A DNA stretch of 64,000 bases, from sequence record OM337876.1. One strand, 5' to 3'. Positions 7,939-60,322 of the stretch are shown piece after piece. This DNA comes from Klebsiella phage KP182. The notes under the pieces were generated by a model, which saw only the letters and a list, made by a program, of their open reading frames with translations, had not been told where the DNA came from and ran no database searches. Every line of letters begins with the position of its first letter. The stretch's first letter is position 1. A program made the position numbers and the translations under genes.

Positions 7939-9270
7939 TCACACATAAAATACATCATATCGACCTCGGGTAGTACCAACATATAATAACTGCTGTGCGA
8001 GAGAAGCATCTGCCATGTGAATGCATGGAGTATAAATGAAGCTTCTGTCAATTGAGATACCCTGGGCCTTATGGAAAGTTGAAGCCGGCAATGCTTTCAC
8101 TTTATGAAACTTACGCTTAGCATCCCAGAACTCAGACCAAGGAGCTTTACCTCCTTTATTCCAATTCTTATATGTATCTGCAGTTTTTGCCAGGAAGAAT
8201 TGAAACTTATTCATTTCTTCTTCGGATGAGATGACACAGATTTTCTCTCTAGCGTACTCTTCATCATCGCCATAGGTTTCAATATCTAATACCCAATGAC
8301 GAACCAGATATTCACCTGGAACACCTCTGGCACCCAAAAACGTGGTGGTTTCAACTGCATCTAATATGCGAACAAACTGACCATTATTGAAAAGAATTTC
8401 GCTGAATTTCTTCCCCTCAAATTTAAGTTCCTTGGTAAGAGGTTCTTGCATAACAACAATCTCACCTACTACGAATGGTCGGTCAGTTTCGTATATTCTT
8501 CGTCTGATTATTTCGTTCAGTTTATCAACAGATTTATTCGTGAACGCAAGCATTCTGTTTTCAAATAAATCTTCTGGGGTTTTAACTAAATTAAAATAAT
8601 TTAGCATAAAATCTTTAAGGGCAGTTCCTTTCGTAAACCCACGGACACCATGACCATCAACTACACAGTCACGAATCCATCCACCATTTCTGATTTCGGT
8701 AGCGACTTCAATGATTGGGGCATTACTCCGCATCACCTCGGTCAAATGAAGTTGTAAGAAATCTTTATGAGTGAAGAATGGACTCAACGCAGGTTCATTA
8801 CTTCCAGGTTCTACTGGACGAATTTGAGCCTTATCACCAATGGCAATGACAATACACCAAGCAGGAATAGTTGCCATCAAAATCTTAAACAGCTTACGGT
8901 CATACATTGAAGCTTCATCACAGATGAGAACTCGAATAGACGCCATATCTGGAGCTTTCTTTTGTTCAAACAGAACGTTTTCTTCATATGTCGTCGGGTT
9001 AATTTTCAGAAGACTATGAATAGTACTGGCCTGCATTCCGCTGAGCTTAGATAAAACCTTTTTGGCCCCATGCGTAGGTGCTGCCAACGCAATACCAGAG
9101 ATACCCTGAGAAATCAAAGCATCAATGATAAATTTGGTTAAAGTTGTTTTACCTGTACCGGCAGGTCCATTAATCGTAATGTGTTGTCCTTTAGCTCCTT
9201 GTTTGACCATTTCAATGACTTTATTAAAAATCGCTTTTTGACTTTCTTTTAACTGGTCAAACGTAATCAT
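7939..9270 (-). CDS. dda: Dda DNA helicase (SF1B)
   Basis: 443 aa; INGPAGTGKTTLTKFIIDALIS Walker A and ~70% identity to the remembered T4 Dda along its length. Confidence 0.93.
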   Translation of the reverse strand: MITFDQLKESQKAIFNKVIEMVKQGAKGQHITINGPAGTGKTTLTKFIIDALISQGISGIALAAPTHGAKKVLSKLSGMQASTIHSLLKINPTTYEENVLFEQKKAPDMASIRVLICDEASMYDRKLFKILMATIPAWCIVIAIGDKAQIRPVEPGSNEPALSPFFTHKDFLQLHLTEVMRSNAPIIEVATEIRNGGWIRDCVVDGHGVRGFTKGTALKDFMLNYFNLVKTPEDLFENRMLAFTNKSVDKLNEIIRRRIYETDRPFVVGEIVVMQEPLTKELKFEGKKFSEILFNNGQFVRILDAVETTTFLGARGVPGEYLVRHWVLDIETYGDDEEYAREKICVISSEEEMNKFQFFLAKTADTYKNWNKGGKAPWSEFWDAKRKFHKVKALPASTFHKAQGISIDRSFIYTPCIHMADASLAQQLLYVGTTRGRYDVFYV

Positions 9271-10416: not shown

Positions 10417-11094
10417 CTAAGCTATAGTAACACTAAAGTAGTCCATAAGTAAACCAGATTTTTCAACTTTGTTATGATCCACCACTTTGAACTTAGTTCC
10501 CATCGGTAACATCCTTTCTTGTTCTTTATCAATCATCTCGATGTTAGCGCTTCTGCGCTGAGCAACGTTATCAATCAAATCATTTGGGCGAATGAATTCA
10601 GAATCCGGAGCAGTAATTAAAAGCGATTTCATGTTGGTATGATAATCAAATGATTGATGGCAATCATTGACTTCAATGACTACAAAGGTCGAGTAATGCC
10701 ATTTGCCTGCAAATTCTCGGGCAATTGTTTCATCTGTTGTGAATGATGCTACCTTTCCAAAGTCAAATTTCTCGCCTTTAATAAGGGCGTCATAAAATGC
10801 TTTAGCCTCACGACACGATAGACCTCTATAGAGAATGTCACTGTTATCAATTTGATGACGTCTAACGATAGAGTCAAGTTTCTTATGAAATTCTTCGCCA
10901 ATCTTATCGTTCATGCATTGCCACAGAATTGACTGTTCTTTGCAGTCAAAACGATTGGCTAACGCTTCCCATGCGCTTAAATCATACACAGGTAATCCTC
11001 TGTGCCGGCGCGCGGAATTCAGAATATCAATAGAATGAATGCTTTCTGCTAGCATAGCTTGTGGGTTTAATGAAATAGCCATGATATTCTCCAT
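10417..11094 (-). CDS. ModA/ModB-family mono-ADP-ribosyltransferase (single copy)
   Basis: 225 aa; R (YRGL), STT (SFTTDE) and EQE (ExE) motifs of R-S-E ARTs; position of T4 modA/modB. Confidence 0.65.
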   Translation of the reverse strand: MENIMAISLNPQAMLAESIHSIDILNSARRHRGLPVYDLSAWEALANRFDCKEQSILWQCMNDKIGEEFHKKLDSIVRRHQIDNSDILYRGLSCREAKAFYDALIKGEKFDFGKVASFTTDETIAREFAGKWHYSTFVVIEVNDCHQSFDYHTNMKSLLITAPDSEFIRPNDLIDNVAQRRSANIEMIDKEQERMLPMGTKFKVVDHNKVEKSGLLMDYFSVTIA

Positions 11095-51997: not shown

Positions 51998-52869
51998 TTA
52001 ATCCCAAAGCCATTCGCAGATGCCTTGCTCAATGGTTCTAGCACCAGCTTCGTCCCAGTTATATTCTTCATCATACTTCAATGCACGCTTAATTTCGGCT
52101 TTATGAAATAAACGCGGAACTGGCATTGCATAGCGCGTCCAGCGCAGAGTTTTCCAGAATCCATCACGCTTTGATTTAGCGGTCAGTTTCTTGGCCTCTA
52201 ACGGTCTTTCCCTGTTTTCAGAAATACGCAATTCTACATATTTCTGTTGAGTTTCTTTATCTTTCTGAGTTTTAACGTATTCGTTATAGCTTTTAATATA
52301 AGCAAATTCGTTATTATTCTGATCGTTCCATTTGGAAGATTTTACTACATGCCAGCCTTTACGGCGAATTGTTCTAGACATTATTACCTCGTTAAGTTAA
52401 ATTACCTCAACGATAGTAAAATCCTGATTTGAAAAATTTAATATTCATGAATAGATGACCTTGCATTTACATTTTGGACATTCAGGTTCTTTGGTTTTAA
52501 GACGCTTGGTAGCAGTCTTTGGAGCAGTGTTGTAATCATATACATGAAGACAACGATAGCACATCACATATTTTTTCATATTAAACCAATAACGAAAGCA
52601 ATATTACGTATAGTAAAAACCCAATCACGAGTACTAGTACTATACCACCCGCTATAGCAAATAGGCTACTCATGTTTAATATAACACCCATTCGTATTAG
52701 CAATAAAGTCTTTACCCTGTGCCAATACTTTACATTCGGAATTAAGACGATTTTGAAGTTCTTCTCGTCTATCGCTTTGAATAGATGCTGCTACACCCAT
52801 CCAAATGAATAACATACTTAAAACTAGCATCAGGAGAGTATTATACGTTCTTGGCTTCATCATAAGCAC
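51998..52869 (-). other. two hypothetical ORFs (127 aa basic; 67 aa membrane)
   Basis: 51998..52381, 52666..52869. Confidence 0.35.
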
Positions 52870-53440
52870 CTACCAGTTCGCACCAGTGTTTACGACAAAG
52901 AGAAACGTATTTGTCTTCACCACCAAGTTCTACTACTTCACCATCGGTAATAGCATTTCCGTTTTCGTCAATACGAGCTACCATTGTAGCCTTACGTCCA
53001 CAGTGGCAAACGCCCTTGAGCTCAACAAGTTTATCGGCTACAGAAAGAAGAGCTTTAGAACCTTCGAATAACTCGCCGCGAAAATCAGTGCGAAGCCCAT
53101 ATGCCATTACTGGAACATCATACAAGTCAACGATTTTACATAGCTGAAGAACATGTTCAGCAGTCAAGAATTGTGCTTCATCTACAAATACACAATGAAT
53201 ATCACGTTGTGTTTGTGCCCACTTGAAAAATTCAAGTATGTCAATAGATTCGTCTACTGTATTAGCTTCATGACGTAGACCAATACGAGAAGTAACTTCC
53301 GTTGCCGAATCCCGAGTATCAATAGCAGGTTTCAGAATGAGAGTTCCCATTCCTCGTTCTTTATAGTTATGAGCTGCTGTAAGAAGGTTAGCTGATTTGC
53401 CTGCATTCATACTCGCGTAGTTGAAATAAAGCTGAGCCAT
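52841..53440 (-). CDS. tk: thymidine kinase
   Basis: 199 aa; 'MNAGKS' P-loop, 'VFVDEAQF' Walker B, C-terminal CHCG...C zinc site; matches T4 Tk. Confidence 0.93.
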   Translation of the reverse strand: MAQLYFNYASMNAGKSANLLTAAHNYKERGMGTLILKPAIDTRDSATEVTSRIGLRHEANTVDESIDILEFFKWAQTQRDIHCVFVDEAQFLTAEHVLQLCKIVDLYDVPVMAYGLRTDFRGELFEGSKALLSVADKLVELKGVCHCGRKATMVARIDENGNAITDGEVVELGGEDKYVSLCRKHWCELVGAYDEAKNV

Positions 53441-53631
53441 TAAAGAGTCTCCATAAAATCAGAAATAGCTTTCTTAGAACGGATGAGTTCATCGTATTCT
53501 TCTGGTAGTCCATTTCCGTAAATGGAACTAATAGCTACTACTTGCTCAGCACCTGCATAATCATCAATCAACTGCCACAGTTTAGTTTTTTGCTCTTTAG
53601 TAATCATCTATTTACCTCTAACAAAACAGAT

Positions 53632-54099
53632 TTAGCATTTAGCCTCTTCATATTCTACCACCGTAATGTCAATATCAGGGGTTGCTAAATTAATAAGTTT
53701 CTCAATTAGTTCCCAATCACCGCCAGCAATACCAGCTCCAATTTTTGGAATGTATAGAGGACGATTATAAACAACACGACCAGAATTTAGCTCATGGAAT
53801 GCATTAAAAATTGCGCCGTAATCAACATTTGGACCTGGCGCATACTGGGTGTATAGATTATAGCAATATGCAGTGCCGTTCTTGTGGGTAGCTCGTGTAT
53901 GAGTTCCAAGCTTAGCTAAATTGTTGTCATAATAACGGTCTTCATCGATGTCAATATTTAAAATCGGCGGATATGCTTTAGCAAGCTGTCCAGCTACACC
54001 GGCACCCATTGTAGTAAAGCAATTACATCCATGAGCAATATCACATTCATTCTTCATGAATAGTTCTACAATATTACCCTTGATATATCCAGTAATCAT
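53632..54099 (-). CDS. stand-alone macro-domain (ADP-ribose binding/hydrolase-like) protein
   Basis: 155 aa; 'DIAHGCNCFTTMGAGVAGQL' and 'IPKIGAGIAGGDW' resemble the two glycine-rich ADP-ribose-binding loops of macro domains (Macro_2-like). Confidence 0.5.
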   Translation of the reverse strand: MITGYIKGNIVELFMKNECDIAHGCNCFTTMGAGVAGQLAKAYPPILNIDIDEDRYYDNNLAKLGTHTRATHKNGTAYCYNLYTQYAPGPNVDYGAIFNAFHELNSGRVVYNRPLYIPKIGAGIAGGDWELIEKLINLATPDIDITVVEYEEAKC

Positions 54100-54107
54100 T
54101 TATTCAC

Positions 54108-54817
54108 CTACGGAATTTTATAAGTTGCATATTCATTAAGATTATTGTATACTCTTAAAAATATAGCATTGTTACAGTTAAGGATAGGGTTTAACACGCC
54201 TTGTTCTTTAGGGTGCATTACTCCGTCAATAGAAACGCCATCGCTCTGCATTCCACATCCACGAGCATTATATTCGACAAGTGGAACTATCACCTGGTCA
54301 TCTTTATCTTGATAATTATAAAATGACATTAGCAATTTTCTGCTGCTAGGAACAAATGCTATTTCAATGTTGTTCTTGAATGGGCCATTGCTTTCTATTT
54401 TAGTACCCTGTGCTGCAAGTACAGTTTCAGGATAGCCTGGGAGCTTTTCCCAGGCATTAACTGAAAATGCGCAGCATAATAAAATAGCCGCTTTTTTCAT
54501 TTTGACGATAGTCCTGACATATAACGAGCCATTAATTGGTCACGATACATTAAACATATATTTTCGTTAGGAGCATTGACACATAAATCTTTCATGCTCT
54601 TAGCCTTACGATTTATTAGTGTTGTCCACTGGGCCGGGCTACGTGAATCTTTTACTCCATCGCTGAATGCTGAATCTAATTCAAGCGCTAATATATCAAC
54701 GCATTCAGAGTTCGTATTGCAAAATGTTTTAGCGATACGAAGTGAATCTGTCATTGAATTTTCAGCATTAGCAGAGAATGCCAATACCAATCCAAGAAGC
54801 GCGGCGTACTTTACCAT
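54108..54817 (-). other. two secreted (signal peptide) hypothetical proteins (130, 106 aa)
   Basis: 54108..54500 (MKKAAILLCCAFSVNA), 54497..54817 (MVKYAALLGLVLAFSANA). Confidence 0.45.
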
Positions 54818-55362
54818 TATTCCACCTTTATATGTAGCATTTTATGTTTTTTTAAGAAATTAGCTTTCTCTAGGACATCTGATGCATAAGAGTTTCCTCT
54901 TTTGACATTCCATCCTGCGTTATAACTAGCAAGAGCTTTTCGCATATTGCCGTTATGTATATTTAACCAATATGAAAGCTCAATATATGCCCATTCCGCG
55001 GAATTCTGTCTAGATTTAAGCATTTTTCTTATTTCAGAATCACTAAGGTTTTTGCCCTCTAATTTAGCTCTGGCTTTAACCGTAGGCAAGTAATTTTGAA
55101 ATACCCCATAAGAATGATGCCCCTTTCCTGCTTTTAAATTGGCTCCTGCCGAAGATTCTTTCCATGATATAGCAGCCATTATATATCCTAAGCCGTTATT
55201 ATCATATCGGTTATGCGGAGATTTTTCCTTTCCGGATTTTTGATATTGCTCACCAAAATTATATGCGTAATGCAAGTTGTCAAGTTGAACATTACTGAAA
55301 GTTGGCTCAGACCCAAAGGCCGTTGAACACAAGGCCATTAGACCGATAAGCGCTTTTTTCAT
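54817..55362 (-). CDS. periplasmic lytic-transglycosylase-like (SLT domain) protein
   Basis: 181 aa; signal peptide; 'AISWKESSAG...GHHSYGVFQ' resembles the SLT catalytic E-S ... GLMQ motif (vs.1 position). Confidence 0.45.
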   Translation of the reverse strand: MKKALIGLMALCSTAFGSEPTFSNVQLDNLHYAYNFGEQYQKSGKEKSPHNRYDNNGLGYIMAAISWKESSAGANLKAGKGHHSYGVFQNYLPTVKARAKLEGKNLSDSEIRKMLKSRQNSAEWAYIELSYWLNIHNGNMRKALASYNAGWNVKRGNSYASDVLEKANFLKKHKMLHIKVE

Positions 55363-56543: not shown

Positions 56544-57181
56544 TTAATTAGATTCTTTATTCCAACCGTGCATATATGCAGTAACTACACTCATTTTATT
56601 CCATTCGTCTGAATGAAACTTCGCAGCTGCTTCTAGATAAGTTATTTTATCTTCGTGATAAGTAACTTCTTCATCAGTTTCTTTATCGTATTCCACAATT
56701 TCAATAGGCTCGTCAACTCCATATCCGCGAGTGCCTATATACGTTGTGGCTTCTTCCCACTGTTTGGTTGTTTCATTCCAAGTTCCATTCTGGTGAGCTT
56801 CATAAAAATCTTGCTCACCAGAATTACTGAACCATTCACAGAAGCTCTCGACTAGGTGTGGAGGACACCTTATAACAATTTCAGCCATTGCATTGTTTTC
56901 TCTTGAATGCGTTGGTCATATGTGATTAAGCTTGAACTAATCACGCCTTTGAGCTTGCCAGATATAAACTCAATTCTAAAATTAGGATAGCGATTCATCC
57001 ACTTCGTGTTAGGAGCATTAGAAATGAATTCTGCGCCTTTGAACGGACCAGACAGAAACTTGTAGCGCTTGTACTCAAGCAGGTTGCCAGCCGTAACCAT
57101 TGTTATTAATTGCTTCATATCGGCAAATCCTGTATTTTCCATTACTGTAATCATATCAACAATTTCTGTCTGTGTCATCAT
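56544..57181 (-). other. two hypothetical ORFs (114, 103 aa)
   Basis: 56544..56888, 56870..57181. Confidence 0.35.
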
Positions 57182-57711
57182 TGCATTCCTATCACGAAAA
57201 ATAAAGGTAAGGTATCATTAGGCATAGACCATCTGATAGCTTCCTGGTACATATCATAGAACTTCATCATATCGGGAACTTTCATTGGTTCTTCAATGAT
57301 AATTAATGCTCTTCCAAACTTTCTTCCTCTAAACTTATAAGAGGAATCATTGGATAGAAATTCCCTGATTGTCATCGGAACAATTGATTTAGCTATCTCG
57401 TTAGCCGGTAATTTATTAATTAAATGCGATGAATTATATTCTCGTAGAATACCTTCCATCAGTTCAGATGATTGTGTGTATCGAGTAGATAAGATTATAA
57501 CCGAACCATCTTCAAGCAACCAATCTGTAGCAAATTGGCATAAGGCTGTGGTCTTTCCGGTTTGTCTTCCACCGTCTAGACGAAGGGTACCGTACTCTCG
57601 CATAAGGCAAGACGGTTCATAAAAACTGTAGTTGGGATTATTCAATCGTCTGTCTGCAGCGTCTCTGAAAGCATGCATCAGGGTCAAATAAATGGGAGTT
57701 AAGTGTTTCAT
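57178..57711 (-). CDS. P-loop NTPase-like hypothetical protein
   Basis: 177 aa; 'GGRQTGKTT' Walker A-like. Confidence 0.4.
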   Translation of the reverse strand: MKHLTPIYLTLMHAFRDAADRRLNNPNYSFYEPSCLMREYGTLRLDGGRQTGKTTALCQFATDWLLEDGSVIILSTRYTQSSELMEGILREYNSSHLINKLPANEIAKSIVPMTIREFLSNDSSYKFRGRKFGRALIIIEEPMKVPDMMKFYDMYQEAIRWSMPNDTLPLFFVIGMQ

Positions 57712-59860: not shown

Positions 59861-60322
59861 TCACTGAGCTGTGCTATACATTTGTGTCATGATTTTGTAT
59901 AAACTTGGACCCATTACATATTTCCACTGGCTTGGTTTAATTAAAGCAAATGCATCGATTTCAGGAAAATTAATTCCATTTTCATCTTTATGGTAAGCTG
60001 TACAACGGCAATTTCTAAACATTTCTGGGCTCACAGGGAGCATATATCCAAACAGATGGATATCCTTATTGCTGGCATAATCATGTCGTCCAAGGTCATA
60101 TAAGAGGTCTTGGTCAAACTCGGTAAATCCAGTCTCTTCCTTGCATTCGCGAATAGCAGCTTCTTTTGGTGTTTCACCAGTCTCAACATGTCCTTTTGGA
60201 ATATCCCATCTAGAGCCTCTACCTTGGACATAGGTATTTGTCATACGACCCATGAAAAGCCGTTTGTCATCGGTAAAGAATAAAATTCCTGCACTGAGCT
60301 CTTTCATTGGCATTCGTTCCAA
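59861..60322 (-). CDS. nudE: Nudix hydrolase (NudE)
   Basis: 153 aa; Nudix box 'GHVETGETPKEAAIRECKEETGF'; e.1 position. Confidence 0.85.
   Translation of the reverse strand: MERMPMKELSAGILFFTDDKRLFMGRMTNTYVQGRGSRWDIPKGHVETGETPKEAAIRECKEETGFTEFDQDLLYDLGRHDYASNKDIHLFGYMLPVSPEMFRNCRCTAYHKDENGINFPEIDAFALIKPSQWKYVMGPSLYKIMTQMYSTAQ

Follow-up and report, generated by a model that had tools for sequence, protein, structure and literature searches.

A stand-alone macro-domain protein of Klebsiella phage KP182 is the ortholog of T4 Tk.4 and a likely counter to DarTG2

Introduction

What does a small macro-domain protein do for a T4-like phage of Klebsiella, and which mark, if any, does it erase? The question is raised by a 155-residue open reading frame (ORF) near the thymidine kinase gene (tk) of Klebsiella phage KP182 (OM337876.1), of which a stretch of 64,000 nucleotides was analysed; we refer to the whole of this stretch as the window. 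A first-pass annotation had seen in the ORF a macro domain that T4 itself would lack, and had named three possible roles for it: erasing the marks of the phage's own ADP-ribosylating enzymes, reversing DarT-type ADP-ribosylation of single-stranded DNA, and binding or degrading ADP-ribose-derived defence signals. Macro domains are found in about 41% of myoviruses (PMC9503650), the A1pp domain of tk.4 orthologs has been on record since 2006 (PMC1524935), and the macrodomain of the Klebsiella T4-like phages VAC13 and VAC66 was earlier flagged as 'toxin-antitoxin' related.

Results

The ORF lies on the minus strand at 53632-54099, and its two glycine-rich stretches, GCNCFTTMGAGVAGQ (residues 24-38) and IPKIGAGIAGGDW (residues 117-129), are present exactly as they had been quoted. 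The gene and its neighbours are as follows.

52841..53440, minus strand: thymidine kinase (tk), synteny anchor; PHROG 592, E=8e-85, and the KpV477 annotation
53440..53607, minus strand: tk.1-like ORF of 55 aa, DUF7438, separating tk from the macro gene; Pfam DUF7438, E=2.4e-15, and PHROG 653
53632..54099, minus strand: CDS of the stand-alone macro-domain protein, ortholog of T4 Tk.4/AdfM; ATG start, 155 aa, stop codon included; ORF list, Pfam, PHROG, AlphaFold2 and Foldseek
54104..54109, minus strand: Shine-Dalgarno-like AGGTGA, identified by inspection of the sequence; it sits 4 nt 5' of the macro-gene ATG and shares nucleotides with the stop codon of the ORF upstream
54108-54500, minus strand: phrog_4957 ORF of 130 aa, between the macro gene and vs
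54497..54817, minus strand: homolog of Vs (valyl-tRNA synthetase modifier), synteny anchor on the other side; PHROG 1256, E=4e-37, 31% identity to T4 Vs
54817-55362, minus strand: Vs.1, with a weak SLT transglycosylase match

The overlap of AGGTGA with the upstream stop codon is an operon-type arrangement, and this overlap, together with the position of the motif, places the macro gene in a tightly packed minus-strand block. A scan for sigma-70 promoters and terminators around the macro gene returned fewer sites than were found in shuffled sequence, and the gene, as part of the vs-tk block, appears to be transcribed by read-through from upstream. The tk-vs-regB block of T4 is an early-gene region. 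The gene had been described as lying beside tk, which is nearly the case, the 55-aa tk.1-like ORF intervening between the two. We note that upstream of the macro gene three ORFs in a row (54108-55362, minus strand) have signal-peptide-like N-termini, and that an exported 'valyl-tRNA synthetase modifier', as the Vs homolog with such an N-terminus would be, is odd. The region shares 99.8% nucleotide identity with Klebsiella phage vB_KpnM_KpV477 (KpV477; Jiaodavirus, Tevenvirinae), in whose annotation the macro gene is labelled 'phosphatase'; a protein of phage KpnM6E1 is 100% identical to the 155-aa protein, and homologs turn up by tblastn in 2,781 phage records.

The evidence that the protein is a macro domain comes from several directions. 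Pfam Macro (PF01661) matches it across profile positions 2-115 of 118 at 22.2 bits (gathering cut-off 22.0; E=1.4e-4), a match that is marginal on its own, and PHROG 335, labelled 'phosphatase', matches it with E=1e-57. Searched against the PDB as a single sequence, the protein matches Poa1p best, and BT1257, SCO6735, DarG, coronavirus Mac1 and TARG1 are also among its matches. Homologs with E≤1e-5 numbered 669, and 51-52 of these were aligned for the analysis of conservation and for a family profile, which matches the macro domains BT1257 (E=1.5e-20), TARG1 (7.5e-17), SCO6735 (1.5e-15), Poa1p (6.9e-15) and DarG (1.2e-13) in the PDB. The AlphaFold2 model (pLDDT 89.8, pTM 0.86) is a three-layer alpha/beta/alpha macro fold, and the best Foldseek match of this model in the PDB is again Poa1p (6lfr, E=1.7e-10, TM 0.78), followed by BT1257, TARG1, DarG and SCO6735; of the best 50 matches, which reach a TM of 0.79, every one is a macro domain but for a single designed protein (4etj). 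Taken over Pfam, PHROG, the family profile and Foldseek, the macro-domain signal is far above chance. The first-pass annotation had named the lack of a macro fold in a predicted structure as the finding that would count against it, and a macro fold is what the prediction gives.

The two glycine-rich stretches had been thought to be arranged like the ADP-ribose-binding loops of macro domains, and the model agrees. The stretch GCNCFTTMGAGVAGQ runs from a strand (residues 20-25) into a helix (34-42) and IPKIGAGIAGGDW from a strand (115-117) into a helix (129-139), so that both have strand-loop-helix form; the model places them as the substrate-binding and the phosphate-binding loop of a macro domain. 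The conserved Asn, the G-x-G of loop 1 and the Gly-rich loop 2 that characterize the macro superfamily are all found, with N26, G32, G34, G121 and G123 invariant in 52 homologs. The description of the protein as stand-alone is correct since the macro fold occupies all 155 aa.

The supposition that the tk.x block of T4 lacks a macro domain, however, does not hold, because T4 tk.4 (NP_049723, 155 aa), annotated 'phosphatase; contains A1pp phosphatase motif', sits there between tk.3 and vs. The window protein aligns with T4 Tk.4 over 155/155 aa at 47% identity and 67% positives (E=6e-47), and both are stand-alone macro domains of 155 aa that are encoded between tk and vs and carry the invariant motifs, including Q85. 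The order of genes in the window is tk, the tk.1-like DUF7438 ORF, the macro gene, the 130-aa phrog_4957 ORF, vs, vs.1 and regB, and that in T4 is tk, tk.1, tk.2, tk.3, tk.4, vs, vs.1 and regB. By full-length similarity and synteny the window gene is the Jiaodavirus ortholog of T4 tk.4. The two phages differ in that T4 carries tk.2 and tk.3 between tk.1 and tk.4, both of which are missing from the window phage, whereas the phrog_4957 ORF between the macro gene and vs is extra to the window phage and is without an equivalent in the T4 tk-vs block; the proteins have diverged at 53% of their sequence, and one host is E. coli, the other Klebsiella. As the ortholog of the already annotated tk.4/adfM, the gene is therefore not novel: it is a known, conserved gene of T4-like phages, and the premise of novelty was wrong.

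To place the protein among macro domains we compared its active site with those of enzymes of known structure. Invariant in the 51-52 aligned homologs are H23, G24, N26, C27, G32, G34, A36, L64, G65, N81, Y83, T84, Q85, P118, G121, G123 and W129, and three segments hold most of these residues.

53986..54030, minus strand: predicted substrate-binding loop 1, GCNCFTTMGAGVAGQ, residues 24-38; it carries G32 and G34 and, together with H23, makes up the H-G-C-N motif, in which H23 and N26 are invariant
53845..53859, minus strand: NLYTQ, residues 81-85; N81, Y83, T84 and Q85 are invariant, with Q85 at the catalytic-Lys position
53713..53751, minus strand: predicted phosphate-binding loop 2, IPKIGAGIAGGDW, residues 117-129; P118, G121, G123 and W129 are invariant, and the segment matches PRIGCGLAGGxW of SCO6735/BT1257

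In a profile-TARG1 alignment and in MAFFT, Q85 falls in the column that holds the catalytic Lys in TARG1 (K84) and DarG (K80). The pattern of the window protein is H23-x-C-N26 … N81-x-x-T-Q85 … P-K-I-G-A-G-I-A-G-G-D-W, and the one common to the window family, SCO6735 and BT1257 is H-x-C-N … N-x-x-x-Q … P-[KR]-I-G-x-G-[IL]-A-G-G-x-W: the loop 1 motif aligns with H24-V25-C26-N27 of SCO6735 and with H-I-C-N of BT1257, and NMIGQ85 of SCO6735 aligns column for column with NLYTQ. SCO6735 (Streptomyces coelicolor, 5E3B) and BT1257 (Bacteroides, 2FG1/2AFC), the latter the best PDB match of the phage family profile, thus resemble the window protein in having Gln at the Lys position, with N81…Q85 in the same numbering, though they are cellular and not phage proteins and are only about 24-25% identical to it.

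SCO6735 is a proven thymidine-ADPr DNA hydrolase, which removes the DarT-made mark in vitro and rescues cells from DarT toxicity; its Q85A variant is inactive, N27S, a change in the loop-1 Asn that holds Q85, nearly abolishes activity, His24 is also functionally important, and catalysis has been proposed to be water-mediated (PMC9411070). Its high activity on DNA has been credited to a long, Lys-bearing mobile loop (PMC9411070), and here the phage family differs: the mobile loop of SCO6735 and BT1257 has an insertion of 5-6 residues, which in SCO6735 contains Lys89, whereas that of the phage family is short (PG-PNVDY), as in TARG1 and DarG. We have therefore rejected membership of the SCO6735 subclass, whose defining long mobile loop is missing, even though the active-site motifs match. 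Human TARG1/OARD1 (4J5Q-S), for its part, has Lys at the position of Q85, and its Asp125 is Ala or Gly in the phage family. Within the ALC1/TARG1-like macro class, the description that suits the protein best is that of a Gln-type member with a short loop.

Yeast Poa1p (6LFQ-6LFU) and TARG1, both eukaryotic housekeeping enzymes, are among the closest solved folds. Could the window protein then be a Poa1p-like ADP-ribose-1''-phosphate phosphatase, or an O-acetyl-ADP-ribose deacetylase, that clears NAD-derived metabolites during infection? We consider this improbable. It is true that Poa1p heads both the Foldseek and the single-sequence PDB rankings and that the N-terminal motif IAHGCNC of the window protein resembles LIHSCNC of Poa1p, H-x-C-N-C being common to the two; His23 of Poa1p, moreover, was judged worth mutating, according to PDB titles. 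Poa1p nevertheless has Ser where the phage family has the invariant Gln85, and it ranks below BT1257, TARG1 and SCO6735 once the family profile is used. Database labels of the type 'A1pp phosphatase motif', 'phosphatase' and 'O-acetyl-ADP-ribose deacetylase' point in the same direction as the Poa1p matches, although these labels, the 'phosphatase' of RefSeq and PHROGs among them, are homology transfers. Many macro domains have Appr-1''-p phosphatase activity as a side reaction. The phenotype of a T4 tk.4 knockout, finally, is DarTG2-specific (bioRxiv 10.1101/2025.11.20.689424), which also argues against a metabolite-clearing enzyme.

DarG, the antitoxin to which a phage enzyme acting on DarT-modified DNA invites comparison, shares the macro fold with the window protein (Thermus aquaticus DarG, 5M31/5M3E; M. 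tuberculosis DarG, 5M3I; TM about 0.75-0.77), and the two probably have a reaction in common, the removal of ADPr from thymidine in single-stranded DNA, the phage protein following, by analogy, the logic of an orphan antitoxin. Identity, however, is about 20%, and the catalytic Lys80 of T. aquaticus DarG, in a P-T-K motif, is Gln in the window family. DarG is about 330 aa long with a C-terminal DarT-binding domain, which the window protein, at 155 aa, does not have. No darT or other ART gene adjoins the macro gene, whose neighbours are the tk.1-like ORF and the phrog_4957 ORF, and the NCBIfam DarG model NF048014 gives the window protein 18.7 bits with a cut-off of 250. The invariant Q85 in the column of the catalytic Lys means that the window family fails a defining DarG feature, and since the protein has neither this Lys nor the C-terminal domain, and its gene has no darT beside it, we rejected membership of DarG.

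DarG models do match these phage proteins weakly but specifically, the PADLOC DarG model scoring the window protein at 21 bits (E=3.8e-5) and T4 Tk.4 at 36 bits (E=1.3e-9). The same model gives 133 bits to gp104 of phage PhiKZ, another stand-alone phage macrodomain that counters DarTG2 and that bears the name AdfM in common with the T4 protein (PMC13309987). PhiKZ gp104 removes DarT2-made ADPr in vitro (PMC13309987, Cell Rep 2026); it is of the DarG-like Lys type, with a P-T-K motif, whereas the window/Tk.4 type is a Gln type, and BLASTP of gp104 with the window protein returns a match of only 23 residues (E=0.003). Given the PADLOC DarG scores and the BLASTP result, we rejected the grouping of the window protein and gp104 as one family by name. 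Judged by sequence, AdfM is two separate macrodomain clades under one name. The name was given independently by two groups (PMC13309987; bioRxiv 10.1101/2025.11.20.689424), and the collision could mislead annotation transfer.

The Gln motif extends to distant phage homologs, in which it is kept as N-L-[YF]-[TS]-Q (an rV5-like phage, a Kuttervirus and Bacillus phage PBS1). Their loci are listed here.

L003, 1447-2046: 'Tk.4 protein' of phage LHE287, with a C-terminal extension of about 45 residues; beside dexA
L004, 1486-2013: gp287 homolog of Bacillus phage PBS1, annotated 'putative DNA repair protein'
L005, 1429-2034: homolog of Kuttervirus SenASZ3, with a C-terminal extension of about 45 residues; beside dexA

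The DNA of PBS1 contains uracil instead of thymine. PBS1 gp287 may be a natural case of a macro domain acting on dU-DNA, a possibility we raise because SCO6735-type enzymes also cleave uracil-ADPr.

Three further ORFs of the window deserve mention, two of them with a potential bearing on ADP-ribose.

10417-11094, minus strand: Mod-like ORF of 225 aa; PHROG 832 'RNA polymerase ADP-ribosylase', E=2e-39; no Pfam family matched
57178-57711, minus strand: ORF of 177 aa with a weak match to Pfam Terminase_6N, E=3.3e-6 (the ATPase part at the N-terminus of T4-type large terminases)
59861-60322, minus strand: NUDIX protein of 153 aa; Pfam, E=5.9e-16; adjoins phage lysozyme (59021-59515)

The Mod-family gene that had been noticed at 10417 is borne out by the PHROG match; by coordinates it lies just downstream of a dda-like helicase (7939-9270) and two further ORFs. 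The Terminase_6N-like ORF lies far from any packaging genes.

Discussion

We think it likely that the window gene encodes an orphan antitoxin-like ADP-ribosyl glycohydrolase of the Gln type that protects the phage from DarTG2. Of the three roles first suggested for it, reversal of DarT-type ADP-ribosylation of single-stranded DNA is the one that orthology supports, through the genetics of T4 tk.4/adfM under DarTG2. T4 lacking adfA and adfN is still resistant to DarTG2, from which another factor was predicted (PMC11825919). When a T4 transposon library was grown on a DarTG2 host (HIDEN-SEQ), tk.4 was the single significant hit, and a clean T4 tk.4 knockout is DarTG2-sensitive, as reported in a November 2025 preprint whose authors renamed the gene adfM (anti-DarT factor, macrodomain) (bioRxiv 10.1101/2025.11.20.689424). 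Removal of ADP-ribose from DNA by T4 AdfM was put forward by these authors by analogy, M. tuberculosis DarG being their only comparison (bioRxiv 10.1101/2025.11.20.689424). That the Klebsiella-phage protein would share the activity and the role of T4 AdfM we infer, in turn, from its being a 47%-identical ortholog. As for the system to be countered, none of the 25 records listed of 118 PLSDB plasmid records found by tblastn with the M. tuberculosis DarG macrodomain is from Klebsiella; E. coli and Citrobacter are present among them.

In the mechanism that we propose, the macro protein would bind the ADP-ribose that host DarT2 places on thymidines of single-stranded phage DNA and would cleave the N-glycosidic link, releasing free ADP-ribose and restoring replicable DNA, which would in turn permit phage growth on DarTG2-carrying hosts. 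Because the active site is of the Gln type, unlike the Lys-type sites of DarG and TARG1, catalysis would depend on Gln85 instead of a lysine nucleophile; Gln85, kept in place by Asn26, would orient the distal ribose so that an activated water could attack it. The free ADP-ribose so released could be cleared by the NUDIX protein of the window, which is probably the ortholog of NudE.1 (e.1). NudE.1 of T4 has been reported to hydrolyse ADP-ribose.

It is possible that the substrate is not so narrowly defined. SCO6735 also takes proteins and uracil-ADPr in RNA as substrates (PMC9411070, PMC13036486), and DNA thymidine is therefore perhaps not the only or the main substrate of the window protein. 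This breadth bears on a different role, in which the protein would counter some other ADPr-based defence, whether by acting on uracil-ADPr in RNA (CmdT-like), by binding or degrading Thoeris gcADPR or NADase products, or by blocking DarT2 stoichiometrically and without hydrolysis; we give these possibilities, taken together, a slim chance. Cleavage of uracil-ADPr on single-stranded RNA by both SCO6735 and TARG1 (PMC13036486) is in keeping with the first, although the adenine modification made by CmdT has been described as irreversible (PMC13036486), and the CmdTAC paper makes no mention of Tk.4. It has been proposed that macro domains of phages act on soluble ADPr derivatives (PMC9503650). Inhibition without hydrolysis has a precedent in catalytically dead SCO6735, which still inhibits DarT by interaction (PMC9411070); the strict invariance of N26, Q85 and the Gly loops, however, argues for catalysis and against mere binding.

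The protein might also serve the phage's own chemistry, erasing the marks of Alt/ModA/ModB-type ARTs and so tuning or recycling ADP-ribose or RNAylation on host proteins, an explanation that we regard as highly improbable. A Mod-like ART is encoded in the same window, myoviruses show an enrichment of ARTs as well as of macro domains (PMC9503650), and SCO6735 and TARG1 hydrolyse protein-linked ADPr as well (PMC9411070). The Mod-like gene, however, is about 43 kb away from the macro gene and unlinked to it. The T4 Alt/Mod enzymes, furthermore, make Arg-ADPr, and to our knowledge no macro domain of the ALC1/TARG1 class cleaves the arginine linkage; the only Arg-specific macro domain that turned up in the literature search is MavL. 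The only condition-specific phenotype of T4 tk.4 in the preprint is, again, that under DarTG2 (bioRxiv 10.1101/2025.11.20.689424).

Returning to a protein that acts against DarTG2, a point that is possibly new is the active site of the Tk.4 family, which is of the Gln type found in SCO6735 and BT1257 and does not have the Lys of DarG. For Klebsiella phage therapy, phages of this type probably carry built-in resistance to DarTG2. We also put forward, with considerable doubt, the idea that two macrodomain clades with different mechanisms were recruited against DarTG2, one by T4-like phages and the other by nucleus-forming jumbo phages, with Tk.4 being Gln-type, short-looped and water-mediated like SCO6735, and gp104 being Lys-type like DarG, and that the Tk.4 type perhaps has the broader range of substrates, such as uracil-ADPr on RNA or dU-DNA and Glu/Asp-linked protein ADPr. 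If this is true, the broader range would make the Tk.4 type a general eraser of host ADP-ribosylation defences and not a DarT2-specific antidote.
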